DNA of 64,000 nt from Candidatus Giovannonibacteria bacterium RIFCSPHIGHO2_01_FULL_45_24 (GTDB lineage: Bacteria; Patescibacteriota; Minisyncoccia; UBA11713; 2-01-FULL-45-33), in assembly GCA_001778495.1 (NCBI GenBank), contig MFHE01000010.1, forward strand, positions 55,292 through 119,291, given 5' to 3'. A program made the position numbers and the translations under genes. Positions within the stretch are counted from its first letter, which is position 1. Each line of letters starts with the position of its first letter. The notes beneath the pieces are model-generated. The model saw nothing but the letters and a program-made list of their open reading frames with translations. It ran no database searches and was not told the DNA's origin. Below are positions 7,828-32,521 of the stretch, piece after piece.

Positions 7828-7930
7828 GTAAAACATTGGTCAACCTGCCAGGTTGACCCATTAGAACTCGCCAGCAAAATCATTTTGGATTTTCACGACG
7901 AGTTATTTGCGCCGTAAATTCAAAAATGAG

Positions 7931-7960
7931 AAATAAAAACGGGGAGCGTTGCTCCCTTTT
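7931..7960. terminator. Bidirectional rho-independent terminator between convergent genes
   Basis: GGGAGC-guu-GCUCCC is flanked by AAAUAAAAAC on one side and UUUUCGG on the other. Confidence 0.5.
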
Positions 7961-7976
7961 CGGCGTATCTCGCCTT

Positions 7977-13927: not shown

Positions 13928-13949
13928 AAAATATTTTCATACGCCCACT

Positions 13950-14711
13950 TTATAATTTTTTAGCCAAGCACACAATTGATAAGCCAAAAGGCAAATTTAT
14001 ATAAGGTAACAATCCTGCTTCCGCCGCCAATACATAATATAACCACCGATCCAACCAATATGGCACGTTGAACAAGCTTTTTGTATGATCGTTGCAAGAA
14101 GGAAAAGGCCGTTCCAATAATCTAATCACTAACGCAACAGGAAAAAGAAAAAAATTAACATAACTGGCTTTCATGACTATAAATCCATTATCTTCTAATT
14201 TCTTAATCAATTCTTTTCTAGTATATCGGTGTTTGGTCCAAACCATTCTGTCGTGATGGCTTTGCAGCCAATCAAACGCCGGTTCGCGCAACAATAGCAA
14301 GCCGCCGCGGCGTAATACCCTGGCAAATTCCCGCAAAACCGCTTTGTCGTCGCTAATCGAACTGTGGTATAACACATCGTTGCAGTTCACTAAATCGTAA
14401 GACGCACTCTTGCAAGGCAATTTCTCCAAATTCCCTTCCAGTATCGTGGCTTTCTTCCTAAGATTGGCATATAAAACTGCTTTCGGATTAATATCTACGC
14501 CCGTAACGGTGCCGTAGCGCCCAAGAAGGTCTAGCATACCTCCTGTACCGCACCCTGCATCTAAAATATTATTATCTACACCTCTCACGTATTTATCCAA
14601 AATAATCTTGCTGATTTTTCTCATTCCGCGATACCACCAAAAAGCATCCTCGTGAGCATAAATATCATCGTATACCCTGCTTTCCATAAACAAGTTTACT
14701 TCTTCCTGCAA
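13950..14711 (-). CDS. Class-I SAM-dependent methyltransferase
   Basis: ILDAGCGTGGMLDLL...GVDINPKA...YDLVNCNDVLYH...RVLRRGGLLLL. The N-terminal WWYRG motif is shared with 29650..30447. Confidence 0.7.
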   Translation of the reverse strand: MQEEVNLFMESRVYDDIYAHEDAFWWYRGMRKISKIILDKYVRGVDNNILDAGCGTGGMLDLLGRYGTVTGVDINPKAVLYANLRKKATILEGNLEKLPCKSASYDLVNCNDVLYHSSISDDKAVLREFARVLRRGGLLLLREPAFDWLQSHHDRMVWTKHRYTRKELIKKLEDNGFIVMKASYVNFFLFPVALVIRLLERPFPSCNDHTKSLFNVPYWLDRWLYYVLAAEAGLLPYINLPFGLSIVCLAKKL

Positions 14712-15529
14712 ATAATTGTTTGCATCATGCCGCCGCCGAAAACCGCAGTAAGCGTAAAAACAGCGGCTACTCCGGCGCGATAAACGGCTTCTAAAACCGC
14801 ATTGCTTTTTGGCACATCTAAAGCGGCTAGCGGGAAATTATGATTTCTTTGCAAAAGAATTTCAAATCCGCAGTTTTCCAAAAGTTTTTTCAAAGACGCG
14901 TTTGTATAATGCTGCAGATGCGCGTGGTCATAAAGCCTGTCATACGGACCCATAATGCCAAGCGCTTTCAATAAGTCGGCTAAACGATAAATTAGGCCAT
15001 TGCTGTTAATCGTCGCAACAACAGCTATGCCCTCGCGCCCCAAAGCGCTGAAAATATTTTTAGTAAATAAAACAGGATTTTCCATATGCTCAATAGCCAT
15101 AAGACTGGTAACAACATCAAAATTTTGCTTGAGCTCCATTGTATTAAAATCGCCGTGCATAAAAGAAATGTTTGCGTCTTCAAAAAGCCGGGCGATGTCA
15201 ACTCCATACAGCGCAGTTTTTTTTCGGTAATTGGCAAAAAACTTTAAAAAATCTCCATTTCCGCAGCCAACATCCAAAAGCGCAATATTTTTATGGCCGA
15301 AATGCGCATTGACTTGATCCGCTATAAACCGAAAAAGTTTCGTGTTCGGATTTTTAAACCAATTCTCGTGTTCTTTGGAAAAATAATCATGATTATATTT
15401 TTTTTGCCGGGCCGCAGGTATAACAGTAAACACATGGCTACATAAAGAGCATTCGTAAATGGAGAGCTCGGCATCTTTAGTCAGATTATTGGCGGCGTTG
15501 CTACATATTGTGCATCTGGCTTGATTCAT
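14696..15529 (-). CDS. Class-I SAM-dependent methyltransferase with N-terminal Cys4 zinc ribbon
   Basis: CTICSN...CSLCSH, then LLDVGCGNGDFLKFF...GVDIA...FDVVTSLMAIEHMENP. Confidence 0.65.
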   Translation of the reverse strand: MNQARCTICSNAANNLTKDAELSIYECSLCSHVFTVIPAARQKKYNHDYFSKEHENWFKNPNTKLFRFIADQVNAHFGHKNIALLDVGCGNGDFLKFFANYRKKTALYGVDIARLFEDANISFMHGDFNTMELKQNFDVVTSLMAIEHMENPVLFTKNIFSALGREGIAVVATINSNGLIYRLADLLKALGIMGPYDRLYDHAHLQHYTNASLKKLLENCGFEILLQRNHNFPLAALDVPKSNAVLEAVYRAGVAAVFTLTAVFGGGMMQTIICRKK

Positions 15530-15930
15530 ATTTTTACAAACTTCAAAAACTCGTCGTAATCCCTGATATAATCGCTTGCGTCTTCAAAATCGTCAGCCAC
15601 GACAAGTATAACGCAATCCTTTGAAAAATCCGTCATTGAATGCCACACCCTTTTTTTAAGCCGCATGCCGCGCGCCGGGTCATTCATAGCAACGCTCCAT
15701 TTTTTGTTTCCGTCATCCATATGGAGCGTGAATGAGCCCAGCAGGCAAAAAATTACCTGCTCCCGCTTTTTATGCGCGTGCATCCCGCGCGCGATTTTGC
15801 CGTCCGGGACGTTCCGTATAAAATAAAACTCTTTTATGGCAAACGGTATTTGCTCATAAATCTTGCCGGCGTATAATTCGCCGACTGGACCTTTAATGGA
15901 TTTTAAAATAATTTCGTCTGGATTTGCCAT
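15526..15930 (-). CDS. FdtA/WxcM-type cupin, dTDP-sugar 3,4-ketoisomerase-like
   Basis: FYFIRNVPDGKIARGMHAHKKREQVIFCLLGSFTLHMDDG...WHSMTDFSKDCVILVVADDFEDASDYIRDYDEF closely follows the FdtA family pattern. Confidence 0.7.
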   Translation of the reverse strand: MANPDEIILKSIKGPVGELYAGKIYEQIPFAIKEFYFIRNVPDGKIARGMHAHKKREQVIFCLLGSFTLHMDDGNKKWSVAMNDPARGMRLKKRVWHSMTDFSKDCVILVVADDFEDASDYIRDYDEFLKFVKI

Positions 15931-15942
15931 ATGTTAGCGGCA

Positions 15943-16683
15943 TTATTTTTTTGGATAAGTTTTTAGCAATTTTCTCATTTTGAAAAACAGCTTTACGTCG
16001 CCAATCAGCTTCTCTTTAAGAAGCGTAAAAGCGGTATAACTTGATTTGCCATATTCCCGTTCATAATGATTTACATAAACTTCCGCGAATCTGGCGCCGG
16101 CCAGCTCCAATTTTTTAATCATTTCCGGCAAAATTGAGGCGTTTCCGGACTCCAGAACAATTTTGTCCATAACGCTTTTCCTAATTAAACGAAAATCGCA
16201 ATCAACATCTCTTATTGGCAGTTGAAAGAAGAAGCGTGCCAACACAGCATAACTCTTGCTTAAAAAATCCCGCAAAAAACCATATCTCCTATCTTTTTTA
16301 TAACCGTTAACAACATCTGCGCCTGTTTCTTTGTATTTATTCACCAATTTTGGGAAATCGTCTTCCAAACGATACTGCGCGTCGCCGTCGGTATAAAAAA
16401 CAAATTCTTTGGAGCAAGCCGCAAAACCATATTTAATGACAGCGTATCCTTCCGTGTTGTCCCTTTTATCAACAATTTTGAGCTGTGGAAATTTTTCCTT
16501 CATCTCTAAAATCTTTTTAAATGTCCCGTCTTTTGATGGACCGCCGTGAAGGGCAATAACCTCCAAATCATTTGTGAATTTTAAACCAACCTCGTAAGCG
16601 CTAGCAATCATTTTTTCAACATTGCCTTCTTCGTTATAAAAAGGAAAAAAAATTGAAAGGGAGGATAGTTTACTTTCCGCCAT
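15943..16683 (-). CDS. GT2 glycosyltransferase (paralog of the GT2 domain of the upstream fusion)
   Basis: SIFFPFYNEEGNVEKM...FVFYTDGDAQY.. has the GT2 DxD architecture. The start is moved to the internal MAESK Met. Confidence 0.65.
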   Translation of the reverse strand: MAESKLSSLSIFFPFYNEEGNVEKMIASAYEVGLKFTNDLEVIALHGGPSKDGTFKKILEMKEKFPQLKIVDKRDNTEGYAVIKYGFAACSKEFVFYTDGDAQYRLEDDFPKLVNKYKETGADVVNGYKKDRRYGFLRDFLSKSYAVLARFFFQLPIRDVDCDFRLIRKSVMDKIVLESGNASILPEMIKKLELAGARFAEVYVNHYEREYGKSSYTAFTLLKEKLIGDVKLFFKMRKLLKTYPKK

Positions 16684-18436
16684 GTCGTTTGAGTCCGTCT
16701 TTAAATAAAACCGTCTCCGTCCACAGGCGCATAAGGCGCCAAGCAACCAAAAAAAGGCGCGGAAAATTTAGCGCTTCAGATTTGCCGTAAGTCCTGAAAT
16801 AATGGCTGACTCCGGCTTCGGCATAGCGGAAACCGGCGTTATGCGCTTTTTTAAGCATCTCTATAGAAAGCACGCCGGAGTTATGCGTCAGCTCCAAAGA
16901 ATCAAGGACTTTTTTCCTAAACAGCCGAAACTCGCAATCGGGATCGCTAATCGGCATCCGGAAAAACCATCTTATAAACCTTCTGTAGGCCTCGCTGATA
17001 ATAATTCTGTGCATTGGCTCCATTTGTTTTGAATGATAACCAACCACAATATCCACGTCATCATTTAAACTTTTCACCAAGGCCGGCAAATCTCCAACAT
17101 CATACTGGCCGTCGCCGTCGGTGTAAAAAATAAAATCCTTCGTCGCCGTACTAAAGGCGCTCTTGAGAGCTGCGCCGTAGCCCATTTTCTTTTCATGGAA
17201 AACCAGTTTTAATTCCGGAATGCTTTTTTGAAGTTCTAAAAGAAACTCACGACTTCCGTCAGAAGAATAATCGTCCGCGACGATAATTTCAAAATCATCA
17301 GTAAATGTCTGTGCAACCCTTCTTCCTTCCAAAATCATGGTTGAAATTGTCCCTTTCATATTAATACAGGGAAAAATCATAGATAAAGACGCAACAGACA
17401 AGCCCGCAAAAGCCCTTTTTCTGATGTCCGCGGACGAGCGTCTCATTTGCTCGCTTGTGCTTTCATATTTTCTTAAAGCGCCATTAAGCCATGCATGATT
17501 TTCTTTATACCAATCAATGGTCACCGGGATATGGCTGTCCAGCGAATGCCGCGGGCGCCATCCTAAAGCGAGCAACTTTGACGGATTAACCGCATACCTC
17601 CTGTCATTTGCCGGACGGTCTTCAACGAAAGTAATCAGATTTTCCCGCTTGTTTAAAATTTTTAATATTTTTCCGGCAATATCCATGTTTGAGCATTCTT
17701 CATCTGCGGAAACTCCGTATGTCTCCCCATAAGGGGCTTTTTCCAAAAGAGCGAGAACAGCGCGGGTGTGGTCGTCTACGTGAATCCACGACCGCACATT
17801 CAAACCGCTGCCGTGAATCGGCAAGGGCTTGTTGTCCATTGCCAGCATGGCGAAAAACGGAATTACTTTTTCCGGATGCTGCCTCGGCCCAAAATTATTG
17901 ACCGAACGCGAAATAATCACCGGCAGGCCGTAGGTCTTTTGATAAGCGCGCACCAGCATCTCTCCTGCGGCCTTGGAAGCGGCGTACGGGGAATTCGGCT
18001 TAAGCGGCGACTCTTCGGTGAACTTCTCATGCGACTTAAAATGCAAGTCGCCCCAGACCTCGTCCGTTGAGATATGAACCATTTTTTTAACGTTGGGCGA
18101 GCCCCTCAACGCCTTTAAAAGCGAGTGGACGCCGACGACGTTGGTATGCACAAAATCGTCGGCGTCGGAATGGATTGACCTGTCCACATGGCTCTCGGCA
18201 GCAAAGTTTACTACAAAGTCGGATTCCAGCATCAGCTTTTTTACGAGCTCCGTGTCGCAAATGTCCCCTTTCACAAACCGGTATCTGGACGGCGGCACGC
18301 CGCGAAGATTTTCTTCGTTCCCGACGTAAGTCAAAAGGTCAAGATTTATGACGAAACTTTCGGGGAAATTATCCAAAATATAATGGATAAAATTAGACCC
18401 CATAAACCCGCACCCTCCCGTAACAAGAAAAGTCAT
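16670..18436 (-). CDS. Fusion: dTDP-glucose 4,6-dehydratase (RmlB-like) N-terminal domain plus GT2 glycosyltransferase C-terminal domain
   Basis: MTFLVTGGCGFMGSNFIHYIL...ISTDEVWGDL...YAASKAAGEMLV is the RmlB/extended-SDR signature. The last ~250 aa are IIVADDYSSDGSREFL...FIFYTDGDGQYDVGDL (GT2). Confidence 0.75.
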   Translation of the reverse strand: MTFLVTGGCGFMGSNFIHYILDNFPESFVINLDLLTYVGNEENLRGVPPSRYRFVKGDICDTELVKKLMLESDFVVNFAAESHVDRSIHSDADDFVHTNVVGVHSLLKALRGSPNVKKMVHISTDEVWGDLHFKSHEKFTEESPLKPNSPYAASKAAGEMLVRAYQKTYGLPVIISRSVNNFGPRQHPEKVIPFFAMLAMDNKPLPIHGSGLNVRSWIHVDDHTRAVLALLEKAPYGETYGVSADEECSNMDIAGKILKILNKRENLITFVEDRPANDRRYAVNPSKLLALGWRPRHSLDSHIPVTIDWYKENHAWLNGALRKYESTSEQMRRSSADIRKRAFAGLSVASLSMIFPCINMKGTISTMILEGRRVAQTFTDDFEIIVADDYSSDGSREFLLELQKSIPELKLVFHEKKMGYGAALKSAFSTATKDFIFYTDGDGQYDVGDLPALVKSLNDDVDIVVGYHSKQMEPMHRIIISEAYRRFIRWFFRMPISDPDCEFRLFRKKVLDSLELTHNSGVLSIEMLKKAHNAGFRYAEAGVSHYFRTYGKSEALNFPRLFLVAWRLMRLWTETVLFKDGLKRHGGK

Positions 18437-18520: not shown

Positions 18521-18940
18521 CTATAGCTTTTTACAGGCACAAGACGGAAGACTTGAAATCGATTCCGCGGGATTGTAATTTGTTGAAGCAATGCAGATTA
18601 AAACAGTGCCTGGATCGAGCCGGGCATCATGCCAAACATCGCCCGGTATAAAAAGAGCCCGATCGCGGCTATCCAAAACCACCTCTTGGCATTCTTTCGC
18701 ACTATGAAGGTTTGTCGTGACTCTTCCCACGGGGACGAGCCAGATCTCTTGTTTCCCTCCATGAGGATGGTAGTGCCCGCCACGTTTAATAGCATCTCCA
18801 GTGTTGTTGACGATGTAATAAACCCTGCGAGCGGCCTCGAAAGCGCCATTTGTATCTCTAATAACTTCGGACGCCACCAATACCCCGCCGCGCTTTTGAT
18901 CAACGAATTCCAAAAATTTGACAACGGCCCATTTAGTCAT
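18521..18940 (-). CDS. Cupin-fold sugar epimerase/ketoisomerase-like protein (WxcM/RmlC-like)
   Basis: RGGHYHPHGGKQEIWLVPVGRV...ALFIPGDVWHDARL. Paralogous to 7977..8393. Confidence 0.5.
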   Translation of the reverse strand: MTKWAVVKFLEFVDQKRGGVLVASEVIRDTNGAFEAARRVYYIVNNTGDAIKRGGHYHPHGGKQEIWLVPVGRVTTNLHSAKECQEVVLDSRDRALFIPGDVWHDARLDPGTVLICIASTNYNPAESISSLPSCACKKL

Positions 18941-18975: not shown

Positions 18976-19662
18976 TTACTTTATTGGCTTAGTCAAGAGC
19001 AGGTGGAATGTATTAAAATATAACGGACGAAGTAATGTAAAATATAAAACAAAAAACGGCAAGCGCGTAGCGCCGAAGAATTTTCTGATTTTTTCTTTTC
19101 GAATGTCTTCTGCGGAAAAACCGGCGGCGCGGACAAGCTTCGCGGCGCGGCTATAAGTGTAATAATGCATCGTAGTCAGTTTCTGGCGGCCGGCGGAGCC
19201 GTCCTCTTTTTGTTTTCCTAAAAATTTTAAAATCGGCCCGGTCCACGCTCTTGGCATCCAATTAATAAAATGCAAATGATAATGGTAATCGTAGACGCCC
19301 CAGCGGTTGTGGAAACTTATGTAGCATCTGCAGCCGGGCTTCAATACGCGGAAAATTTCCTGAAGCATGCGCGCCGGATTATCTACGTGCTCGCTGACCT
19401 CGGCGCAATTGACAAAATCAAAATGATTATCTGGAAACGGCAAATTTTCCGCGCTTGCTCGGACAACTTTTCCGCCTATGGCGGAAAAAACGCGCTCTGG
19501 GCTTGACTCCACTCCGTACGCATCAAATCCCAAGCCGGCCATCTCGCGCAAAAAATTTCCTTTGCCGGAGCCCACGTCCAAAACCTTGCCGCCAATCGGA
19601 ACAAATTGTCCGCAATATTCAGCGTGGCTCATTTTTATTAAAAACAAAAAACTTATAGCCAA
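18976..19662 (-). CDS. Class-I SAM-dependent methyltransferase
   Basis: VLDVGSGKGNFL...GVESSPE...FDFVNCAEVSEHVDNP...RVLKPGCRCYISF. Confidence 0.65.
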   Translation of the reverse strand: MAISFLFLIKMSHAEYCGQFVPIGGKVLDVGSGKGNFLREMAGLGFDAYGVESSPERVFSAIGGKVVRASAENLPFPDNHFDFVNCAEVSEHVDNPARMLQEIFRVLKPGCRCYISFHNRWGVYDYHYHLHFINWMPRAWTGPILKFLGKQKEDGSAGRQKLTTMHYYTYSRAAKLVRAAGFSAEDIRKEKIRKFFGATRLPFFVLYFTLLRPLYFNTFHLLLTKPIK

Positions 19663-20224
19663 GGAAGTTACCCATGGCGGATGCCGGTATCAGAACCAAA
19701 AGCGCGAGATTCGCCCAAACTTTCAAATCAAAACCGGAGGGAGCGCCGATGGTGTTTATCATCAAGTGCATAAATAAGAGCCCCAAAAGGGATGTGGCAA
19801 TCGTTATGCTGAAAAATTTTGCGTACTGGGCGTGCGCGCTGTCCAAATCGTTCGCCTTAAAAATCCAGAATTTATTCCACAAAAAACTTTGCGTTATCGT
19901 TATCGCAAAAGCCATGATTATAAAAACGTCCACCAGCCAGCCGCTGGCAACGCCCGTAATCAAAATGAAAAAGTTGAAAATGCCCGCGTCCAGAAAAAAA
20001 TTGAAGCATCCGACGAGGCCGTATTTTCCCAGCTCCAGCAAGACAGGCCGCCTCGCCGACATCAAATAAATCAAATAAAAACCGGCGGACACTGCTGCGG
20101 GCATGAAAATCAGCCAGACGACGACAAATGCCGGCTCAAAAAAATTTATATTTTTTAACGTCGGCAAAGTCAAAAGCGCGATAGCTTCCCCAACGATTGC
20201 TACCCTCAAAAGTTCAAGCCGCAT
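19619..20224 (-). CDS. GtrA-family membrane protein (polyprenyl-phosphate-sugar translocase/flippase-like)
   Basis: GKYGLVGCFNFFLDAGIFNFF...FLWNKFWIFK...NFLGYKFFVF has the GtrA four-TM pattern. The true start may be an internal Met near 20104. Confidence 0.6.
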   Translation of the reverse strand: MRLELLRVAIVGEAIALLTLPTLKNINFFEPAFVVVWLIFMPAAVSAGFYLIYLMSARRPVLLELGKYGLVGCFNFFLDAGIFNFFILITGVASGWLVDVFIIMAFAITITQSFLWNKFWIFKANDLDSAHAQYAKFFSITIATSLLGLLFMHLMINTIGAPSGFDLKVWANLALLVLIPASAMGNFLGYKFFVFNKNEPR

Positions 20225-20227
20225 AAC

Positions 20228-21271
20228 TCAAAAAAAATGCTTAGCGATTTTTAAAATCCCCTGTTTCCACGGGACGCGGTGGGATACTCCGGTCTGTCCC
20301 TTGAATTTATCCACGTTAGCCAAATACCATTCATAGTTGCGGACGAGCGCTTCTTTGTTGGAATATTTTGGGCGGAACCCCAAAATTCGTTCAGCTTTCT
20401 CCACTGACACAAAAGAGTCCTTGCCTGCGGTTTCATAAACCCATCTGTAAAGCGGCGAAAGCTTTAAAAGCTCCAAAAATCTCAAAGTCCAAATCATGAG
20501 AGAGGCCGGAAAACCGATGATTTTTTTCCCGTATCCGGCGCGGTCTAAAACCGCCTGGTAATCTTCGCGCATGGTAGCAAATTCTTTCGCGCCGATATTA
20601 AAGACGCCATTTGTTTTTTCTTTCGGCAAAGTCGCCGAAAGCCAAATCGCCTCGCATAGGTCTTCCACATCCAAAAGCTGGTAGCGGTTTTTGCCGTTGC
20701 CGATCATCGGGAAGCCGTGCCCCGTGCTCACCCAATCGTAAAAAAGCGCAAATACTCCCAGGCGCTCGGGCCCCACAAAAGATTTCGGCCGCAAAATGGT
20801 TACGCGTAGTCCGCGCTTCCGCGCCTCTTCGCAAATACGCTCTGCCAAAATTTTCGCCTCGCCGTATGGTCCCACCCCTTGCAATTTATCATTTTCGTAA
20901 ATCGGGTGATGGTCTGGAATTCCATAAACCGCCGTGCTGGAAATATGTATGAATCTGTCAACGTTGCGCCGCCTGGCGCTTTCTAAAACATTTTTCGTCC
21001 CGTCCACTTCCGTGGAGTATATATCTTTTTTAGAATACAGCGGCAATGCGGCCGCCGTATGGACAACGATGTCAATTCCATCCATCGCTTTATCAACGTC
21101 CGATTTATCTCTTGTGTCCCCGACCAGCGCCTCAACATTGTTTTTTTCAGGGTAGTCAAACGAGGCTAAATCCAGAATTCTTACTTTCTGCCCTTTTTTG
21201 AGCAAAAAACGCGCGAGGTTAATTCCCAAAAACCCGGCGCCTCCGGTGATTAAATATTTTTTTGCTTCCAT
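20228..21271 (-). CDS. Extended-SDR NAD-dependent epimerase/dehydratase
   Basis: [19 protein letters not shown]...VVHTAAA...ISSTAVYG...YGEAKILAE. Confidence 0.75.
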
Positions 21272-21663
21272 AATATAGATGAAATAAAATCGTCAATTAA
21301 ATATGTGACTTTAACAAAAAAATTCTCCCGGCCGGAAATTTTTCTTCGGACTTTAATGAATTCGGCTCCGATATTCTTCGCGAACAGCCCGTCTGTCAAA
21401 AATTTATCGCCTATCACCACAACTTTTTTGCCGGCTATGTCAACACCCTCGGCAGCTTCGCGGCTCGGCTTTTTTGCGCCGTTGCTTTTATTGCTGATTA
21501 AATGAACTTCGTTTTTGGCCTTAAGCTCCGCCAGCTTTTTTAGAACCTCCGGACTCATTTCCCGGTCTCCGTCCGGCCGCAAAGTGCCGTCAATGTCCAG
21601 AAAAATCGTAGCGCTTGACCACGGCGTATCCAGCTCCTCAAAAAACCTTTCACTATCCAGCAT
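21250..21663 (-). CDS. HAD-superfamily phosphatase (HAD-IIIA-like)
   Basis: [11 protein letters not shown] (DxDxT motif I)...HLISNKSNG...[12 protein letters not shown] (motif IV). Confidence 0.6.
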
Positions 21664-22519
21664 AAAGAATTATTGCGGCAGACACTGCCAGCCAGATAAA
21701 AACGGTGAGCGTCAAATTTTTGTCTGAAAGCAAATCGTCCGTCGGGCCGTCGTCGCTCCGCGTTTTTATATTTATCAAAAATAAATACCGAAAAAGCCCG
21801 TAAAGCACGATGGGGATTGTAATCATAAGAAGCTTGCTGTGCTCGGAGCTGAATGTATAAAAAGCGTAGGTGATAATCGTGGAGGGCAAAACAATCGCGT
21901 TCATCTGGTCAAGCAATGCAAGAGAATACCTGCCAAGCCCCTCGCGCGCTTCGGCCTCCTCCGCATGCATAAGCTCATTTTTTCTCTTGGAAATCGCCAA
22001 AAAAAGCGTCAGGAAAAAAGTCGCAAGAATCAACCATTCCGAGAACCGGACATTTATGGCAACGGCGCCGGCGATGACGCGAATCACAAACCCCAAAGCG
22101 ATTGTTATCACGTCAATTATCACGAAACGCTTGAGATAAAACGAATATAAAACATTAAGCGCCAGAAATCCGACGACGGTGAGCGCGAAAAAATTATTTA
22201 TGTAAAAACTCCAGAAAATGGATAATGCCCCAAAAACCACGGCGGCAAAAACGGCTGCGGATTCCGGAAGCTCTCCCGAAGCAATCGGCCTTAAGCGTTT
22301 TTGCGGATGCCTGCGGTCATACGGCGCATCCACCACGTCGTTGAGCAGATAAATAGCGCTTCCGGCGAGGCAGAAAATTATGAAGGCCTCAAAGACGGTT
22401 GCCAGCTTCTCAATATCAAAAAACTGCTTTACGAAAATTATGGCGGCAAAAAGAAACAGGTTTTTAACCCATTGCTTCGGCCGCATTGAGATTATCAAAT
22501 TTTTAGCTAAATCAATCAT
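21653..22519 (-). CDS. UbiA-family prenyltransferase, decaprenyl-phosphate phosphoribosyltransferase (DPPR synthase)-like
   Basis: YLLNDVVDAPYDRRHPQKRLRPIASGEL is the NDxxDxxxD...DR.HP.KR.RPIA.G signature shared with Rv3806c-type enzymes. Eight or more TM helices. Confidence 0.7.
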   Translation of the reverse strand: MIDLAKNLIISMRPKQWVKNLFLFAAIIFVKQFFDIEKLATVFEAFIIFCLAGSAIYLLNDVVDAPYDRRHPQKRLRPIASGELPESAAVFAAVVFGALSIFWSFYINNFFALTVVGFLALNVLYSFYLKRFVIIDVITIALGFVIRVIAGAVAINVRFSEWLILATFFLTLFLAISKRKNELMHAEEAEAREGLGRYSLALLDQMNAIVLPSTIITYAFYTFSSEHSKLLMITIPIVLYGLFRYLFLINIKTRSDDGPTDDLLSDKNLTLTVFIWLAVSAAIILYAG

Positions 22520-22522
22520 AAC

Positions 22523-24382
22523 TTATTTTAACCACTTTTCGCGCCAAAGCTGAAGCGCGATTAAATTCCATAATTCAATTCTGCGATCAACTTTTCCTTT
22601 TTGGTGCTCATTCCACAGTTTATCAATTTCCCTGCCGTTAAACCACATGCTTGTTTTAAGAGCGGAAATTTTTTCGGCTCCAAAACTATACAATTCATTT
22701 TTAAGCCACAAACCAAGCGGCATAGCGAAACCCTGTTTTTTTCTTTGGGCTATGCGTGGAGGGAAATATTTTGAAGCAACGCAGCGCAAAAGATATTTAG
22801 TTGTAAGGCCTCTGAGATGAAAATCTGTGGGCAACTTCAGAGCGTATTCTACCAAATTATGATTCAAAAGCGGAGAGCGCACCTCTAAAGAATTGGCCAT
22901 GCTGGCGCGGTCAATTTTGGCCAAAACCTGATCACCCAAATAAAACTTTCTGTAAAAAGCGATTATGCGCGCCCAGTCATTCAAGTACCCGCTGCGCGGC
23001 AGAGATTCATCAATCAGCTCCGTTACAGGATTCCCGGATAAGGCCGTGTGATGGATATCAGGAGAAAGAATCGCCGCAAGAGTGTCGGTGTGGTTATTAG
23101 CAAGCCATTGCTGATGCCTTAAAACCGCGTCCGATTCAGCAACTAAAAAAAACCTGCGAAGTTTAAAATCCAGCGGCATATACTTGTCCGATGCCGGTAT
23201 AAAGTCGGCTGCCGCCGCATACGCCATCCGCAATACCGGCATAAAAAACTTAAACTTCTGCCACAGCCTTTCAGCGATAAATGTCTGGTAACCCATGAAT
23301 ATTTCATCTCCGCCGTCCCCGCCGACCGCGACTTTTATTTTCGACCCGGCAAAGCAGGATAAAATAAAGGTTGGTATTATTGATGTGTCCGCCAAAGGCT
23401 CGTCAGAAATATCGGCAACTCGCGGGAGAAAGCCCAATACCTCTTCGGAGCCGATAACTTTTTCATTGTGGCGAGTCGCAAGAATGCCAGCGACTTCGCG
23501 CGCGTAAGAAGACTCGTCGAACGATTTTTCTTTGAATCCAATAGAAAAAGTTTCCAGTTCGGGATTTATTTGTTTCGCAAAACAGGCAACTAAACTGGAA
23601 TCTAGCCCGCCGGAAAGGAAAACGCCTAGCGGGACGTCGGCAACCATTGTTTTTTTAACACTGGCGGCAATTCTGCTTTCCAGTTCCTCTCCGGCCTTTT
23701 CCAAACTCAACTCAGAAAATTTTTTATTAAAATCCGGCTGCCAATATGTTTTTGCCGCGATTCTGCCGTCGTTCAACATCAATAACGTTCCGGCTTCCAG
23801 CTTTAGAATGTTTTTCAAAATAGATTTCGGCGCCGGCACTTGCCCGAAGGACAAATAAAGATATAAAGACTCTGGGTCAATTTCACGCCGGATTACTGGA
23901 ACCTCTAAGAGGCCTTTTAGTTCCGAAGCGAAAGCAAATAAATTTTTATCATGAAAATAGTATAAAGGTTTTTCTCCCATTCGGTCGCGCGCCAAAATCA
24001 ACGTTTTTGTTCTCCCGTCCCAAATTCCGATAGCGAACATTCCTTCCAGTTTGCCGAACACATCCAGCCCCCATTTTAAATAACCGCTTAAAATAACCTC
24101 GGTATCGCTTTTGGTTCCGAACCCGTATCCAAGTTCAAGCGTCTTTTTTAATTCCTGAAAATTATAAATCTCGCCGTTAAAAACCACGGCCACTTTGCCG
24201 TCCGGAGAAACCATGGGTTGGCGCCCGCCTTCAATATCAATAATTGAAAGGCGGCGATGCCCAAGCCAAATATTGTTATCTTGAAAAAAATTTTCGTCAT
24301 CGGGCCCGCGATGACGAAGCGCGGCAGTCATTGTTCTGATAGTTCTTTCGTCACCCCCGATTAAACCGGCAATACCGCACAT
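22523..24382 (-). CDS. asnB: Asparagine synthetase (glutamine-hydrolysing) family amidotransferase
   Basis: MCGIAG N-terminal Cys nucleophile...HRGPDD...SGGLDSS PP-loop...618 aa. Confidence 0.8.
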   Translation of the reverse strand: MCGIAGLIGGDERTIRTMTAALRHRGPDDENFFQDNNIWLGHRRLSIIDIEGGRQPMVSPDGKVAVVFNGEIYNFQELKKTLELGYGFGTKSDTEVILSGYLKWGLDVFGKLEGMFAIGIWDGRTKTLILARDRMGEKPLYYFHDKNLFAFASELKGLLEVPVIRREIDPESLYLYLSFGQVPAPKSILKNILKLEAGTLLMLNDGRIAAKTYWQPDFNKKFSELSLEKAGEELESRIAASVKKTMVADVPLGVFLSGGLDSSLVACFAKQINPELETFSIGFKEKSFDESSYAREVAGILATRHNEKVIGSEEVLGFLPRVADISDEPLADTSIIPTFILSCFAGSKIKVAVGGDGGDEIFMGYQTFIAERLWQKFKFFMPVLRMAYAAAADFIPASDKYMPLDFKLRRFFLVAESDAVLRHQQWLANNHTDTLAAILSPDIHHTALSGNPVTELIDESLPRSGYLNDWARIIAFYRKFYLGDQVLAKIDRASMANSLEVRSPLLNHNLVEYALKLPTDFHLRGLTTKYLLRCVASKYFPPRIAQRKKQGFAMPLGLWLKNELYSFGAEKISALKTSMWFNGREIDKLWNEHQKGKVDRRIELWNLIALQLWREKWLK

Positions 24383-24386
24383 ATAA

Positions 24387-25331
24387 TTATTGATTCACTA
24401 TTTTTTCCTTAATTAAAAAGTCCGTGTTTTTCTGCTCATCGCTTCTTTGACGCACAAAAATTTCGGCGAGCAATCCCATCAGTATAAATTGAACTCCAAT
24501 AATAGAGAAAATGGCTACAATTATCGGCAATGGAGTTGAAATAAAACTTTTATCGCCAAAATATTTGAAGTACACCATTCCCAAAAAAGAAATAAACGCC
24601 AGAAAAAAGCTGGCGAAGCCAATTCCTCCGAAAAAGTGAATTGGCCTTTCAGAATAACGATGGAAAAAGTTTAAAGCCAAAACATCAAGCAGAACTTTGA
24701 ATATTCGCATCATGCCGTATTTCGATTCGCCGAATTTCCGCGGCGAGTGTCGGACTTCCATCTCGGCCAATCGCGCCCCTAAAATATGAGCGTAAGCGGC
24801 AACAAGTCGGTGCTCTTCTCCTTTCAGTTTTATATGATCTAGCACTCCGCGTCGATACACCCTAAGAGTGCAGCCAAAATCATTCAATTTTGCCCCGGAC
24901 ACATAGGCAATCAATCTGTTAGCCAAGAGTGACGGAATTTTTCGCAAAAGCATCTGATTATTCCAACGGCTCTTGCGCCAGCCAGAAACGACGTCATGCC
25001 CATCCATTAACTTGGAAATCATATCCGGTATGTCTTCTGGGTAGTTTTCTAAATCGGCGTCAATTGTTACTATGACGTCTCCTTTGGCACTTTTTATCCC
25101 AGCGGCCAAAGCGGCGCTCTGCCCTGAATTTTTTCTTAACCTTAGCACCGTAACCGGCTGAAGATGTTTCATTTTCTCAAAAGTGCCGTCTGTTGAGTCG
25201 TCGTCAACAAAAATTATTTCATATTCCGATCCAATATTTTTTAAAACCATAACCAAACGATCATGGAGTTCATTGACAGTGTCTTGTTCGTTAAAAAGCG
25301 GCACGACAACAGATATAAGTTTGGGCTTCAT
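24387..25331 (-). CDS. GT2 polyprenyl-phosphate glycosyltransferase (ArnC/GtrB/Dpm1-like) with two C-terminal TM helices
   Basis: ISVVVPLFNEQDTV...IIFVDDDSTDGT...VTIDADLENYPEDIP, plus C-terminal hydrophobic helices, as in ArnC/GtrB. Confidence 0.75.
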   Translation of the reverse strand: MKPKLISVVVPLFNEQDTVNELHDRLVMVLKNIGSEYEIIFVDDDSTDGTFEKMKHLQPVTVLRLRKNSGQSAALAAGIKSAKGDVIVTIDADLENYPEDIPDMISKLMDGHDVVSGWRKSRWNNQMLLRKIPSLLANRLIAYVSGAKLNDFGCTLRVYRRGVLDHIKLKGEEHRLVAAYAHILGARLAEMEVRHSPRKFGESKYGMMRIFKVLLDVLALNFFHRYSERPIHFFGGIGFASFFLAFISFLGMVYFKYFGDKSFISTPLPIIVAIFSIIGVQFILMGLLAEIFVRQRSDEQKNTDFLIKEKIVNQ

Positions 25332-25345
25332 ATTAAAAAAGTACA

Positions 25346-27166
25346 CTATTTACTAAACGCATACAAATAAATATTGTTTGACGCGGCAACCTCTCTTAAA
25401 TTTTCAGAAAGGGGCGATAAATCCCATTCCGGATTTTTGTTTTTGTCCCAAACGATGTAATTGACCTCGCCCTTCTTCAAAATGCCCGCAATGCCTTCCG
25501 GACTGGCTACTTTTTGATATTCTCGGAAAAGCAAAGCAGACATTTCGGCCCTGCTTTTAATCACCGCCGGGTCGCCCTTAGCCAAACGAAAACCATATTC
25601 TTCGTAATCAAAACCGGAGTTAAAACCAGCCACAAAAAAGTAAATAAGCGGGTAAAAACTAGTCCCCCATTCGCCCCCGACTCCGTATCCGGCATCCACA
25701 TCGCGAAGCCGGCCCAAAAAATTGTCTCTCGCGTCCTTATCCAAATACATATACACGTATAGCGAGTCGGTAATTCTCTCCATTGGCGTGTTATAAACTA
25801 AAGCCGTAGCATGGCCCCAAAATAAATCATGATGCGTGTACACCGGAAATAACATTGCGTAGGGTAGGGATGACGCGAGAACAACTCCCGGTTCGGCGTC
25901 CGATTTCAATGCGTCAATAATCGGGCGGTAGTTCTGCCTGTATTCTTTGGCCTCCCGCGTAATCAGCGTCACCTGATACTGCCGCGAAGCCGCATTAAAA
26001 TAAGCGGCAATAATCAGCGCCGCCAAAAAAATGGTTCCGTATTTTCGCAACATTAATTTCCCGCGCTCCGCGCCACATACAAGCGCCCATCCGAGGTAAG
26101 CCCCGACGACGATAGAAGTTGGTATTGTAAAATACCAAAAATAGTGCATTAGTTGCGGGACTCGTCCGGTAATTACCTGCTGGTTCAATGCTATCCAATT
26201 TGCGAGAACAACAGACAAAAGCAGCGGAGCGTTCTTGCCCCATTTATTCCGGTACGCAAAAATAATGGACAAAATCAAAACCAAAAATAAAATTTTGCTG
26301 AACGGCGCCGGGGCATGATTCAAAGTAGTCCCATAATACAAAATCTGCTTGCCGATTTCGGAATACTGAAATGAAAATGTTTTAAAAAGAGTGTAAGCGC
26401 CAACGGCAAGCCCGATGGCTGAAACCCAAAAAACTTTTTTCGCTGATTCCCAATCGCGCAGACAAAGATAAATCAAAAACAAGCTCCCTGTCAGCGCCGA
26501 GGCGAAAGTCCATGTGTAGGGGTAAACGTAAAACAGCGCTCCGAATGCAATGCCGGACCAAAGAACATGTTTTCTCTCCGATGATTTCAAACTTCTTGCA
26601 AGCAAATTAATGTAAATAAAAAGCGCAAGAAGCCCGTAAACTGGCATTATTGGCCGGGAAAATATGTTGGGGTCCGGATTGGTTGCAGTAATCGGCACAT
26701 GATAAAGCTTCACTAAACTGTAGCCGCCTATGGTAAATAGCGCTATCGCCGCGGACAGCAACTTATGCGCGGAGAGGCGCAGTATGAAAAAGTAAATAGA
26801 GAAAATCAAAAGAACAACGCCCAAAAAAGCGTAAAGAGTGTATACAGGAACAATATAATCTACCGCTGCGCGAGAAAGCCCCAGCAGTTTAACCGGCGCG
26901 AGAAGAAGATATTCTATATAAACCTGGTGCGGGTCGGACGAATCGTTTTTGCCGATTTTAAGAAAAATATTGCCCAAAGAGTGGCCTTCCAGAATTTCCC
27001 TGCCTTTGGCGATATAGTGGAAGTCGTCCGACCACTCGCCAATATTTATGCCCTTATACGCATCGCCGGCCATAAACGGGAAAAGCAGGGCCGGCGATAT
27101 CACCAAAAGCGCCAAACCGACGGCGGAGCTCAATATAAATTTATGTTCGGTAAAAAAATTAGACAT
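25346..27166 (-). CDS. Polytopic membrane protein, GT-C-like glycosyltransferase candidate (family A, member 2)
   Basis: About 60% identical to the adjacent 27171..28907. GEWSDDFHYIAKGREILEGHSLGN first-loop acidic motif. C-terminal ...YIVWDKNKNPEWDLSPL. Confidence 0.45.
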   Translation of the reverse strand: MSNFFTEHKFILSSAVGLALLVISPALLFPFMAGDAYKGINIGEWSDDFHYIAKGREILEGHSLGNIFLKIGKNDSSDPHQVYIEYLLLAPVKLLGLSRAAVDYIVPVYTLYAFLGVVLLIFSIYFFILRLSAHKLLSAAIALFTIGGYSLVKLYHVPITATNPDPNIFSRPIMPVYGLLALFIYINLLARSLKSSERKHVLWSGIAFGALFYVYPYTWTFASALTGSLFLIYLCLRDWESAKKVFWVSAIGLAVGAYTLFKTFSFQYSEIGKQILYYGTTLNHAPAPFSKILFLVLILSIIFAYRNKWGKNAPLLLSVVLANWIALNQQVITGRVPQLMHYFWYFTIPTSIVVGAYLGWALVCGAERGKLMLRKYGTIFLAALIIAAYFNAASRQYQVTLITREAKEYRQNYRPIIDALKSDAEPGVVLASSLPYAMLFPVYTHHDLFWGHATALVYNTPMERITDSLYVYMYLDKDARDNFLGRLRDVDAGYGVGGEWGTSFYPLIYFFVAGFNSGFDYEEYGFRLAKGDPAVIKSRAEMSALLFREYQKVASPEGIAGILKKGEVNYIVWDKNKNPEWDLSPLSENLREVAASNNIYLYAFSK

Positions 27167-27170: not shown

Positions 27171-28907
27171 TTATTTCAACGCATACAAATAAATATTGTT
27201 TGACGCGGCAATTTCTTGAAGTTTGTCGGCAAGCGGGGAGAGGTCCCACTCCGGATTGGTATTCTTGTCCCAGACAATGTAATTAACGTCAGCTTTCTTT
27301 AAAATATTAATGATTCCTTCGGGGTCGTCAACTATCTTTTTGTATTCGCCGGAAAGCAAATCTATGGTTTTCTCTCTGCTTAAAGCGGCATAGATTGATG
27401 AGTAGTGGCGCCCATATGCTTTTTTAATCCCGCCGGCGTCTATCTTATAAAGCGCGCCGGCAAAGTCGCCTCTGGCCTCCTTATCCAAATACGCGTACAC
27501 ATAAAGCGCGTCTTTCATTCTTTCTGCAGGGGTAGCGAAATTGAACGCGTGCATGGCCCAAAATAAATCATGGTCGGTATAGACTGAAAAAAATCTTCCA
27601 TAAAAAAGATCGGAACTTAAAATGACCCCGGGCGCGGTATCGCGGTTTAATGCGTCAATAATCGGGCGGTAGTTTTGCGCGTATTCTTTGGCATCCCAAA
27701 TCACAAGCATTCTAGCGTATTGCCGGCTGGCAGTATTTAAAAAAGCGATGACGATTACAATGCCGAGCAAAGCGCTTCCGTATTTTCGCAATATTAATTT
27801 CCCGCGCTCCGCGCCCCACACAAGCGCCCACGAAACATAAGACCCCACCACAATGGAAGTAGGAATGGTAAAGTACCAAAAGTAATGGTCAACGCCTTGC
27901 GGATCGCGCCCGGTAATTACCTGCTGATTCAGAGCTATCCAGCTGGCTAGAATAATCGCCAAAAGAATCGGGTAATCTTTTTTGCCGCGGTTTCTGAAAG
28001 CGTAAATAATTGCCATAATCAAAATCAAAAAAGAGAGCTTGCTGAAGGGCGCGGGGGCGTGAGAAATAAACGTTGTAAAGCCGGCGATTTGTTTGCCGAT
28101 TTCCGAAGACATAAGCAACGCTAATAAAACAAGGGCGTAAGACCCGATGGCAAGCCCGATGGCTGAAACCCAAAAAACTTTTTTCGCTGATTCCCAATCG
28201 CGCAGACAAATATAAATCAAAAACAAGCTCCCTGTCAGCGCGGCGGCAAACGTCCATGTAAAAGGATAGACGTAAAACAACGCGCCGAAAGAAATTCCCG
28301 CCCAAAAGACGCGCCTCCATCCCGATTCACGCAAACTTTTTGCCAGTAAATTTATATAAATAAAAAGCGCAAGAAGCCCGTAAACGGGCATTATTGGTCG
28401 GGAAAATATGTTGAAATTATAGGCGACGGCGGTAACTGGAAGGTGGTAAAGCTTTACTAACTCATAGCCGCCCACTGTAAATAAAGCGGCGGCGGCTGAC
28501 AGCAATTTATTGTCGGACAAATGCAGAATAAAAAAATAAATAAATAAAACCAACAAAGCAACTCCCAAAAAAGTATAAAAGCCGTAAAGCACCACGATAT
28601 GATTTTTCGCGACGCCGGAAAGCCCCAATAGTTTTACCGGCGCCAGCAATAGGTAGTCTATATAAGTCTGGTGCGGGTCGGACGAATCGTTTTTGCCGAT
28701 TTTCAAAAAAGTATTTCCCAAAGAATGGCCTTCCAGAATTTCCCTTCCTCTGGCGATGTATGCCGCGTCGTCGTCCCATTCGCCAAGATTGATGCCATTA
28801 TACGCATCGCCGGCCATAAACGGGAACATCCACGAAGGCAAGAGGATTAAAAACGCAAGCAAAATCGCGCAAACAAAAATAAATTTATGCTCTGTAAAAA
28901 ATTTCAT
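27171..28907 (-). CDS. Polytopic membrane protein, GT-C-like glycosyltransferase candidate (family A, member 3; tandem paralog)
   Basis: GEWDDDAAYIARGREILEGHSLGN. C-terminal NYIVWDKNTNPEWDLSPL. A 93-nt near-identical tract is shared with member 2. Confidence 0.45.
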   Translation of the reverse strand: MKFFTEHKFIFVCAILLAFLILLPSWMFPFMAGDAYNGINLGEWDDDAAYIARGREILEGHSLGNTFLKIGKNDSSDPHQTYIDYLLLAPVKLLGLSGVAKNHIVVLYGFYTFLGVALLVLFIYFFILHLSDNKLLSAAAALFTVGGYELVKLYHLPVTAVAYNFNIFSRPIMPVYGLLALFIYINLLAKSLRESGWRRVFWAGISFGALFYVYPFTWTFAAALTGSLFLIYICLRDWESAKKVFWVSAIGLAIGSYALVLLALLMSSEIGKQIAGFTTFISHAPAPFSKLSFLILIMAIIYAFRNRGKKDYPILLAIILASWIALNQQVITGRDPQGVDHYFWYFTIPTSIVVGSYVSWALVWGAERGKLILRKYGSALLGIVIVIAFLNTASRQYARMLVIWDAKEYAQNYRPIIDALNRDTAPGVILSSDLFYGRFFSVYTDHDLFWAMHAFNFATPAERMKDALYVYAYLDKEARGDFAGALYKIDAGGIKKAYGRHYSSIYAALSREKTIDLLSGEYKKIVDDPEGIINILKKADVNYIVWDKNTNPEWDLSPLADKLQEIAASNNIYLYALK

Positions 28908-31830: not shown

Positions 31831-32521
31831 TCCAGTTTATAACGATGCCGCCCACATCGGCAAGAGCGTGGAGGCGCTGATGAATTTTATCCAGAGCGAA
31901 AATTTAAACGCTGAAGTTTTGATAATAAATGACGGAGGCAAAGACGCCACGGCAAAAATAGTTGAAGAGAAATTAAAAAAATATCCGGCGATCCGTTTTA
32001 TAAATAGGGCAAAAAATATAGGCAAAGGCGCGAGTGTGCGCGAAGGCATCGCCACCTCCTCCGGTAACGTCATTATTTTTACCGACGCAGATTTGCCGTA
32101 CGGCACAAAGCATTTTAAAGAAATGATTGAGTTTCTGCGTTCATGGAAAGCTGATTTGGTTATCGCAAACCGCCACCTGTGGTCAACCTGGCAGGTTGAC
32201 CAATTTGGCATTAGCACTGTAAGACGTCTTACTCATTGGAGCTTCGGGTTTTTAGTCCGAAATCTTTTGCATTTGAGATTTTCAGACACCCAAGCGGGAC
32301 TTAAAGGAATGAGTCATAAAGCGGCGGGGGTGATTCTCCCGAAATTAAATATCAACGGCTTTGCTTTTGATTTGGAGCTTTTGGTTGAAGCCCAAAAAGC
32401 CGGCCTAAAAATCCAGGAGGTTCCGGTGGTTTTGGAAAACGCCGGCCAGTCAAATATCAAAATAGCCAGAGATTCTCTCCGGATGCTTATAGATATAATT
32501 AAAATCTGGCTTAGCTACTGA
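31778..32521 (+). CDS. GT2 Dpm1-like polyprenyl-phosphate sugar synthase
   Basis: ISIIIPVYNDAAHI...VLIINDGGKDAT...IIFTDADLPYG...VIANRH. Confidence 0.7.
   Translation: MPPQKATASLAPEISIIIPVYNDAAHIGKSVEALMNFIQSENLNAEVLIINDGGKDATAKIVEEKLKKYPAIRFINRAKNIGKGASVREGIATSSGNVIIFTDADLPYGTKHFKEMIEFLRSWKADLVIANRHLWSTWQVDQFGISTVRRLTHWSFGFLVRNLLHLRFSDTQAGLKGMSHKAAGVILPKLNINGFAFDLELLVEAQKAGLKIQEVPVVLENAGQSNIKIARDSLRMLIDIIKIWLSY

Follow-up and report, generated by a model that had tools for sequence, protein, structure and literature searches.

The closest described systems to the locus analysed here are the pentofuranose glycosylation system of Citrobacter youngae O1/O2, established by genetics, thin-layer chromatography/mass spectrometry and nuclear magnetic resonance (Kelly et al., PNAS 2024; PMC11127046), and the mycobacterial decaprenyl-phospho-arabinose (DPA) pathway, with which it was explicitly compared by those authors. 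The locus itself is a cassette of four genes encoding a UbiA-fold protein, a haloacid dehalogenase (HAD) phosphatase, an extended short-chain dehydrogenase/reductase (SDR) and a GtrA-family membrane protein. It lies in a stretch of 64,000 nucleotides (the window, by which the whole of this stretch is meant) that was traced by exact-sequence matches to Candidatus Giovannonibacteria bacterium RIFCSPHIGHO2_01_FULL_45_24, of the Candidate Phyla Radiation (CPR)/Patescibacteria. The deposited labels there are 'hypothetical protein A2661_00560' for the UbiA protein and 'epimerase' for the SDR.

In the Citrobacter system, polyprenyl-phosphate-ribofuranose is made from phosphoribosyl pyrophosphate (PRPP) by ORF15, a fusion protein with a HAD phosphatase at its N terminus followed by a UbiA-type synthase, and a single cytoplasmic SDR, ORF13, is enough to switch the side chain from ribofuranose to xylofuranose. 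The system is completed by the small transporter ORF14 and the GT-C glycosyltransferase ORF12, the founding member of family GT136, and was regarded by its authors as widespread. Their supplement includes one case of a stand-alone phosphatase, two kinds of transporter, one of them of the GtrA/Rv3789 type, and loci in which several epimerases and GT-Cs occur, and Rhizobium sp. CCGE531 is among the candidate pentofuranose loci that they list. The arabinofuranose systems described so far all carry DprE1/DprE2 homologs (all from PMC11127046); as cited in that paper, pilin arabinosylation in Pseudomonas aeruginosa involves such a DprE1/DprE2-containing locus, with a polyprenyl-phosphate 5-phosphoribosyltransferase (PPPRS), outside Actinobacteria.

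By analogy, the cassette is most likely the CPR version of the system of Kelly et al., and we give a probability of about 0.65 to the reading that the operon serves to make a polyprenyl-phosphate-linked pentofuranose and to export it as donor for extracytoplasmic glycosylation. An initial annotation of the window had suggested a pathway of this kind outside Actinobacteria; the concept is not new, having already been demonstrated in Citrobacter in 2024 (PMC11127046). Its list of possible sugars, ribose and arabinose, was also incomplete, as the only single-SDR precedent makes xylofuranose, the C3 epimer. No paper on a lipid-linked pentofuranose pathway in CPR was retrieved by a full-text literature search, and the locus is, as far as we could find, the first CPR case of a pentofuranose system.

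The cassette and its gene products

The cassette occupies positions 19619-22519 on the minus strand as four tightly packed genes in the list of open reading frames (ORFs), and the same four genes were recovered by a gene caller on the public copy of the contig. There is an overlap of 11 nt between the UbiA and HAD genes and one of 22 nt between HAD and SDR, whereas SDR and GtrA are separated by a 3-nt spacer. Therefore, the initial description of four overlapping minus-strand genes holds for boundaries and strand and for two of the three junctions, but not for SDR/GtrA.

The UbiA protein matched PF01040 (5.4e-28) and passed the curated cut-offs of both NCBIfam models named decaprenyl-phosphate phosphoribosyltransferase, NF008977 (243 bits, cut-off 234) and NF008978 (210.3 bits, cut-off 207). 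The UbiA, MenA, CyoE, ChlG and GGGP-synthase models scored at most 42 bits against cut-offs of 180-390, this best value of a non-phosphoribosyltransferase model being set against a cut-off of 269. The sole PDB relatives at E<0.001 were the Rv3806c structures 8j8j/8j8k, aligned over the full length (5.7e-41), and no prenyltransferase structure was matched in that search. Residues 60-82 form the Asp-rich motif NDVVDAPYDRRHPQKRLRPIASG, which includes N-D-x-x-D-x-x-x-D (N60, D61, D64, D68); as in Rv3806c, there is no second Asp-rich motif of the kind found in true prenyltransferases.

The residues of Rv3806c that bind PRPP, Mg2+ and decaprenyl phosphate have been defined by structure and mutagenesis (PMC10994848). 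When the two proteins were aligned, 10 of these 13 functional residues, plus Asp81 of the Asp-rich motif, were identical: Arg22, Lys28, Tyr70, Asn73, Asp77 and Asp81 of Rv3806c correspond to R13, K19, Y57, N60, D64 and D68, and Lys87, Arg90, Tyr138, Lys143 and Lys191 to K74, R77, Y125, K130 and K178. Two further positions show conservative replacements (Gln135 to N122 and Tyr157 to F144, the latter change also occurring in some mycobacteria; PMC10994848), and one is not conserved (Lys208 to E193). The assignment as an Rv3806c-type polyprenyl-phosphate phosphoribosyltransferase, and not a UbiA/MenA/CtaB enzyme, is thus well supported at the sequence level. A role as quinone or heme prenyltransferase was rejected on the scores of the other-family models (42 bits or less) and on the PDB relatives, which were Rv3806c only. 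The earlier assignment to the decaprenyl-phosphate phosphoribosyltransferase type, made from the Asp-rich motif, agrees with these results, and the model-based placement that had been suggested as a check against MenA, UbiA and CtaB also favoured that type. Many CPR homologs already carry the label 'decaprenyl-phosphate phosphoribosyltransferase' from PGAP.

The matches of the HAD protein to family models were weak (PF13242, 5e-7; PF09419, PGP_phosphatase, 1.7e-6; TIGR01662, HAD-IIIA, 4e-11; and also YqeG), but all four catalytic motifs were found: D23-x-D25-G-T (DIDGT), S57 (ISN), K64/K65 (KKP) and G85-D86-x-x-x-D91 (GDKFLTD). The protein is accordingly a HAD and not a PAP2-family phosphatase, as initially proposed. 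It gave no match to PF12710 and no significant similarity (E > 0.03) to the PF12710 HADs of three other loci (L093, L004 and L007). Orthologs with 37-41% identity were present in seven CPR modules. In one locus, from Candidatus Peregrinibacteria (L053), a 287-aa ORF (7135-7998) consists of a GtrA domain (residues 7-127) fused to a HAD phosphatase (residues 148-261), and this fusion gene stands between the PPPRS and SDR genes.

The SDR matched PF01370 (1.4e-44). Its TGGAGFLG stretch (residues 9-16), D34, S111-S112-T113, Y136 and K140 were invariant across 40 orthologs, D34 being the acidic residue at the end of beta-2 that marks NAD preference. Where RmlB of the same window, a dTDP-glucose 4,6-dehydratase, reads HISTDEVWG, the SDR reads HISSTAVYG, so that S-T-A replaces T-D-E and the Asp-Glu pair of dehydratases is not present. 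The score with the dTDP-glucose dehydratase model TIGR01181 was 88.5 bits against a cut-off of 365, and a 4,6-dehydratase was rejected for both reasons. With 81.7 bits against the cut-off of 262 of TIGR01179, the protein is not a GalE ortholog either, and it fell far under the cut-off of every named nucleotide diphosphate (NDP)-sugar enzyme model. The best named-family models, again all far under cut-off, were HpnA, OleD and the sterol-demethylation SDR; these families are lipid-acting or lipid-pathway-associated, which would fit a membrane-associated SDR.

The AlphaFold model of the SDR (pLDDT 83, pTM 0.85) had GalE-type 4-epimerases as its nearest PDB folds (TM-score 0.69-0.76, 21-28% identity). 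The structure prediction that had been proposed as a check thus ended among epimerases, with the Ser/Thr-Tyr-Lys triad present; from the initial 'extended-SDR epimerase/dehydratase', the extended SDR with an epimerase-like triad stands and the dehydratase, for lack of the Asp-Glu pair, does not. A 20-aa hydrophobic insertion at residues 255-274 is shared with the PPPRS-linked SDRs of Haloterrigena and of a phage-like contig and is not found in the two NDP-sugar SDRs of the window. Because of this insertion, the SDR is suggested to be peripherally associated with the membrane.

The GtrA protein matched PF04138 over residues 67-195 (1.4e-12), in agreement with its original family assignment, and hydropathy indicated two extra N-terminal transmembrane helices. 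A protein with 87% identity occupies the same position in a second Giovannonibacteria contig (L094). The class-I methyltransferase gene that follows the cassette (Table 1) is also kept in that position in L094, with 72% identity, and comes directly after the SDR in another related contig (L096). It is therefore co-conserved with the cassette in Giovannonibacteria, and its product may modify the pentose. A methyltransferase also follows the SDR in the locus labelled Synergistaceae that is described below (L015).

Recurrence of the module in other genomes

A metagenome scan with the UbiA protein returned three loci, which are used here as the basis for synteny in close relatives and not for statistics. 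The order UbiA-HAD-SDR-GtrA was kept at 81-89% identity in L094, or at 72-89% when the methyltransferase is included, whereas the upstream genes differ. Conservation of the gene order in two further Giovannonibacteria contigs, together with recurrence of the module in eight or nine more CPR loci, shows that the association of the four genes is not due to chance.

When GTDB species genomes were scanned with an SDR alignment, more than 597 relatives were found, and the best 80 of them were examined. These 80 showed 66-73% identity to the window SDR, and orthologs at this level were spread over at least 10 phyla, including Chloroflexota, CPR classes, Ignavibacteria, Verrucomicrobiota, Kiritimatiellia and Planctomycetota; in haloarchaea, actinomycetes and rhizobia, identity within the family was 35-52%. 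A PPPRS gene adjoined the SDR gene in nine of the 80 loci, seven of which also had the HAD gene. Eight of the nine were from CPR (Gracilibacteria, Peribacteria, Saccharibacteria, Peregrinibacteria, Parcubacteria and Kerfeldbacteria), and the ninth was L015. Within the same CPR loci, the SDR was conserved at about 70% identity and its operon partners at 32-41%. In most relatives from Chloroflexota, Ignavibacteria, Verrucomicrobiota, Kiritimatiellia and Phycisphaerae, the SDR was a lone gene among housekeeping genes.

The linkage was also followed on plasmids. All nine inspected SDR matches in PLSDB with at least 34% identity were located within about 7 kb of a PPPRS gene or at the edge of the record, as in Mesorhizobium japonicum, where the SDR copy is cut by that edge. 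They included four haloarchaeal plasmids (48-52% identity), one of which was inspected and had PHP phosphatase and GT39 genes, Streptomyces and Nonomuraea (about 40%, beside PPPRS), and Rhizobium sp. CCGE531 and Sinorhizobium fredii NGR234 (35%, beside PPPRS). The rhizobial SDR gene shared its surroundings with a HAD-UbiA fusion, a further SDR and a GMC oxidoreductase, as well as with two SMR genes and one large membrane protein. Two of the PPPRS loci are on symbiosis plasmids, pNGR234a of S. fredii NGR234 (L008, 299625-307690), a few kb from nodS/nodU, and pMLa of M. japonicum (L092). In a phage-like contig from the human gut (L093), UbiA, a PF12710 HAD, SMR, SDR and DUF6044 genes stand in a row, the SDR being 29% identical to that of the window; a distant blastn search with this module against all complete E. 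coli genomes gave no match.

Across the CPR loci, genes for UbiA, HAD, SDR and a small protein with four transmembrane helices recurred in permuted order. The flippase slot was filled by GtrA in L012 and L053 and by SMR/EamA proteins in L013, L056, L076, L079 and the phage-like L093. The phosphatase was the capless HAD in the window, a PHP protein in Haloterrigena, an EEP protein in Streptomyces, and a PF12710 HAD in a Saccharibacteria locus (L021), in Lactococcus, in the phage-like contig and in the rhizobial fusion. That different families fill the same slot points to the role of each slot. Modules without an SDR of the window type were also found, with PPPRS-HAD-GtrA on Lactococcus pF27D and PPPRS plus DprE1-like and DprE2-like genes in Chondrinema. 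The resulting pattern, in which the synthase stays the same, phosphatases and flippases can be exchanged and a redox or epimerase part is optional, is the one expected of a lipid-linked pentofuranose pathway. The idea of the same logic with non-orthologous parts was thus borne out, since the phosphatase and flippase slots vary by lineage while UbiA and the SDR family stay.

The glycan island and its GT-C enzymes

The cassette is embedded in a glycan-biosynthesis island that spans approximately 0.3 to 46 kb of the window and contains GT2, GT4 and GT-C enzymes, methyltransferases, aminotransferases, FdtA-like isomerases and two AsnB-like amidotransferases; it is followed by the housekeeping genes secD, folA, thyA, gyrB and pheS. 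At least five GT-C enzymes are encoded in the island, all within 16 kb on either side of the cassette (Table 1).

Table 1. Cassette genes, the methyltransferase that follows them and the GT-C genes of the surrounding island.
Feature	Positions	Strand	Description
UbiA	21653-22519	-	288 aa; polyprenyl-phosphate 5-phosphoribosyltransferase (PPPRS), Rv3806c type
HAD	21250-21663	-	137 aa; small capless phosphatase, candidate polyprenyl-phosphate-ribose-5-phosphate 5'-phosphatase
SDR	20228-21271	-	347 aa; extended, NAD-type, candidate epimerase on polyprenyl-phosphate-ribofuranose
GtrA	19619-20224	-	201 aa; membrane protein, candidate flippase for lipid-linked pentose
Class-I SAM methyltransferase	18976-19662	-	after GtrA; PF08241, 2.7e-21; possible accessory
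GT-C	25346-27166	-	606 aa; Pfam-less CPR-restricted family; nearest GT-C upstream in the same gene string, candidate acceptor-side enzyme
GT-C paralog	27171-28907	-	64% identity to 25346-27166 (BLASTP)
GT-C paralog	11125-12861	-	41% identity to 25346-27166 (BLASTP); sole island GT-C without adjoining GT2 gene
PMT_2 (GT39/GT83-like) GT-C	32515-33909	-	PF13231, 1.2e-6, 29.3 bits, cut-off 26.1
PMT_2 GT-C	35880-37499	+	PF13231, 1.4e-8

The 606-aa protein had no Pfam, NCBIfam or PDB sequence match. Its AlphaFold model (pLDDT 91.5) retrieved only GT-C enzymes among the PDB structures, all 22 Foldseek matches at E<1e-3 being of this kind (STT3, PglB, AglB, AftA, DPY19 and ArnT), with a TM-score of 0.56 for AftA. 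Sixty-seven homologs were found, three of them fused to a GT2 domain, and all the taxon-named ones were from CPR. From the model, the three paralogs of about 580-606 aa, none of which matched a Pfam, NCBIfam or PDB sequence, look like an undescribed GT-C family. The GT-C array that had been claimed around the cassette is accordingly present, on the evidence of two PMT_2 matches, the GT-C fold of this model and two paralogs. A homolog of the second PMT_2 protein of Table 1 (37% identity) adjoins the SDR ortholog in another locus (L050), and this was the only exception when BLASTP among 32 membrane proteins linked no window GT-C to those of other PPPRS modules. No DUF6044 protein or ORF12-like GT-C was detected at the window.

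Another Pfam-less polytopic family stands beside PPPRS modules of Parcubacteria, Saccharibacteria and a Bacteroidota plasmid (L056, 9042-10745; L005, 5217-6785; L014, 5253-6725; L050, 3913-5646). It has no sequence kinship to the window GT-Cs and is a candidate family of pentofuranosyl-transferases.

The two genes immediately upstream of the cassette, for an AsnB protein (22523-24382) and an ArnC-like GT2 (24387-25346), were rejected as parts of the module, as they are not beside it in L094 or in other CPR loci. The former and a second AsnB-type glutamine amidotransferase of the island (39410-41194) may amidate uronic acids of the glycan; the former scored 503 bits with the XrtA/PEP-CTERM amidotransferase model, under its cut-off of 817. 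A 588-aa ORF (16670-18436) combines a dTDP-glucose 4,6-dehydratase (TIGR01181, 399 bits, cut-off 365) with a GT2 domain of the polyprenyl-phosphate-sugar synthase kind, a fusion that may be genome-specific because its two parts match about 740 nt apart in L094. A gene set typical of synthesis and modification of a dTDP-3-amino-3,6-dideoxyhexose is found at 12854-16746 and 5526-7827. It comprises an FdtA-like isomerase (15526-15930), a DegT aminotransferase (12854-13927) and two methyltransferases (13950-15529), with a second DegT and a C-methyltransferase at 5526-7827; a second, weaker FdtA-like gene is at 18521-18940. A 538-aa ORF (9507-11123) carries UDP-glucose/GDP-mannose dehydrogenase-like domains and a C-terminal methyltransferase domain, and at the island edge (46262-47773) a protein with lamin-tail and PKD domains is likely a surface protein.

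Proposed pathway and comparison with known systems

In the pathway that we propose, the UbiA enzyme would join PRPP and polyprenyl phosphate to give polyprenyl-phosphate-ribofuranose-5-phosphate, a step that is well supported. The HAD protein would then remove the 5'-phosphate to leave polyprenyl-phosphate-ribofuranose, as its motifs, the gene overlap and the slot logic suggest. The SDR, peripherally on the membrane and with bound NAD+, would oxidise and re-reduce one ring hydroxyl through a keto intermediate, yielding either xylofuranose (C3, as in the sole single-SDR precedent) or arabinofuranose (C2). Epimerisation is proposed because of the recurrent linkage, the active-site features and the precedent of ORF13. 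GtrA would translocate the lipid-linked sugar across the membrane to its outer face, and one of the GT-Cs of the island would transfer the pentofuranose to a cell-surface glycan or protein.

Several observations weigh against this reading. Approximately 70 of the 80 best SDR relatives had no PPPRS gene within 8 kb and no conserved neighbour; these loci were mostly from Chloroflexota, with others from Ignavibacteria, Verrucomicrobiota and further groups, and in the approximately 70 non-CPR loci the neighbours included valS, a Nudix gene, sucCD and pyrH. For this reason, the SDR family may have a broader or different substrate. As PPPRS genes were judged within 8 kb of the SDR relatives, the assignment of the SDR to the epimerase step on a lipid-linked pentose is made with moderate confidence; that the whole family acts as a general single-protein epimerase for polyprenyl-phosphate-ribofuranose is a tentative and rather doubtful extension. 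The phosphatase is not of the PRP (PF12710) type but HAD-IIIA/PGP_phosphatase-like, and about 18 residues between its motifs II and III are missing compared with all six other CPR module HADs; because it is 71-81% conserved in the two related contigs L094 and L096, it is probably functional despite this gap. GtrA is missing from L096, and the flippase activity of GtrA proteins has never been directly demonstrated (PMC11127046). Most GT-Cs of the window adjoin a GT2 polyprenyl-phosphate-sugar synthase gene of their own, as the 606-aa protein does with the ArnC-like GT2 (182 bits), and in profile comparisons the GT-C family of the window was unrelated to the membrane proteins of the PPPRS modules of L056 and L007.

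Alternatively, the operon could end at polyprenyl-phosphate-ribofuranose and the SDR be an ordinary nucleotide-sugar epimerase or reductase of another island pathway, merely adjacent to the cassette. In favour of this, the closest folds are those of NDP-sugar 4-epimerases, NDP-sugar enzymes abound in the island, most close relatives are not beside a PPPRS, and PPPRS, HAD and GtrA modules without the SDR exist, such as that of Lactococcus pF27D. This explanation is nevertheless unlikely, since the family is PPPRS-linked in CPR, haloarchaea, two actinomycete genera and rhizobia, where the other neighbours are unrelated, and since the window protein is far below the cut-offs of the named NDP-sugar models, has a hydrophobic insertion not seen in the NDP-sugar SDRs of the window, and is encoded by a gene that overlaps the HAD gene by 22 nt. 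The SDR could also be the reductase half of a two-enzyme 2'-epimerase, analogous to DprE2, with oxidation by an unlinked flavoprotein and arabinofuranose as product, as in mycobacteria. A GMC flavoprotein oxidoreductase does share the operon of the homologous rhizobial SDR, and the arabinofuranose systems of Kelly et al. all have DprE1/DprE2 homologs. However, no VAO/GMC flavoprotein oxidase was found in the scanned ORFs of the window (most of those of at least 150 aa) and no flavoprotein adjoins the CPR, haloarchaeal or Streptomyces modules, the window protein is an extended SDR whereas DprE2 is a classical one, and a single SDR suffices in Citrobacter, all of which make a DprE2 analogue improbable.

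The fate of the lipid-linked pentose may be questioned as well: it could be an end-product glycolipid, or feed an enzyme encoded elsewhere, and not be the donor for the neighbouring GT-Cs. None of the GT-C genes accompanies the cassette in both the window and L094, no sequence tie to the membrane proteins of other modules was found, and most window GT-Cs have a GT2 partner. On the other side, polyprenyl-phosphate-pentofuranose is a GT-C donor in every characterised case, no fewer than five GT-C genes are found within 16 kb to either side, and large polytopic membrane proteins are embedded in other modules, so that we see little chance of a destination other than the neighbouring GT-Cs. Finally, membership of the UbiA superfamily (PF01040) is what an aromatic or heme prenyltransferase in a coincidental neighbourhood would also show; with the UbiA/MenA/CyoE/ChlG/GGGP-synthase models at no more than 42 bits against cut-offs of 180-390, no prenyltransferase structure matched in the PDB and the second Asp-rich motif not present, such an enzyme is extremely improbable.

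CPR bacteria live as very small episymbionts, with a surface chemistry about which almost nothing is known. The locus predicts that a surface glycan or protein of Giovannonibacteria is decorated with a lipid-delivered furanose pentose, and a pathway established in Enterobacteria and mycobacteria would thus also be present in a monoderm lineage with reduced genomes. The analysis also provides correct names for genes deposited as 'hypothetical protein' and 'epimerase', recognises three Pfam-less membrane proteins as GT-C glycosyltransferases with the help of a structural model, and singles out the SDR family as the foremost candidate for an epimerase of lipid-linked pentoses with a wide distribution. 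If that family were a general epimerase, many uncultured lineages, CPR episymbionts included, would commonly make lipid-linked xylo- or arabinofuranose donors and bear pentofuranose-decorated surfaces, and arabinofuranose or xylofuranose could be made without a DprE1-type flavoenzyme.

Compared with the mycobacterial DPA pathway, the first enzyme and Rv3806c are full-length homologs with conserved active-site residues, and a GtrA-family protein (as Rv3789) and GT-C genes are also present, the modelled GT-C resembling AftA (TM-score 0.56). In contrast, the phosphatase is a HAD and not a PAP2 protein like Rv3807c, and one extended SDR replaces the DprE1/DprE2 pair, with neither a flavoenzyme nor a classical-SDR DprE2 found among the scanned ORFs; the lipid carrier is probably not decaprenyl phosphate. 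The loci of Pseudomonas and of Chondrinema litorale (plasmid L005) likewise have a PPPRS near GT-C (GT39-like) genes outside Actinobacteria, but the Chondrinema type uses an FAD oxidoreductase and a short SDR where the window has one extended SDR. The combination of a lipid-phosphate-sugar synthase, a small flippase and a GT-C is shared with GtrA/GtrB/GtrV and ArnC/ArnE-F/ArnT, whereas the GT2 synthases of these systems act on a nucleotide sugar and the donor of the window would come from PRPP through a UbiA-fold enzyme and a dephosphorylation step.

The greatest likeness is to the Citrobacter system, with which the window shares a UbiA-type synthase predicted to use PRPP, a candidate HAD 5'-phosphatase, a small flippase candidate with several transmembrane helices, a GT-C, and a single SDR with the motifs of ORF13 (TGxxGxxG, YxxxK); a link to the list of Kelly et al. 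is given by the SDR of the Rhizobium sp. CCGE531 locus, which is 35% identical to that of the window. The differences concern the phosphatase, which is a separate 137-aa capless HAD-IIIA/PGP-phosphatase-like protein and not a fused PF12710-type PRP domain, the flippase candidate, which is GtrA and not ArnE/F-like as ORF14, the GT-Cs, which belong to a CPR-only family and to PMT_2, no ORF12-like one having been detected, and the host, a CPR bacterium without outer membrane or O antigen. Therefore, a PPPRS with a phosphatase, a small transporter and a GT-C are clustered at the window as in the systems of Kelly et al., but the phosphatase does not belong to the PRP family. The known concept of the pentofuranose pathway is left unchanged, and the CPR system is distinct in its HAD subfamily and its SDR family.

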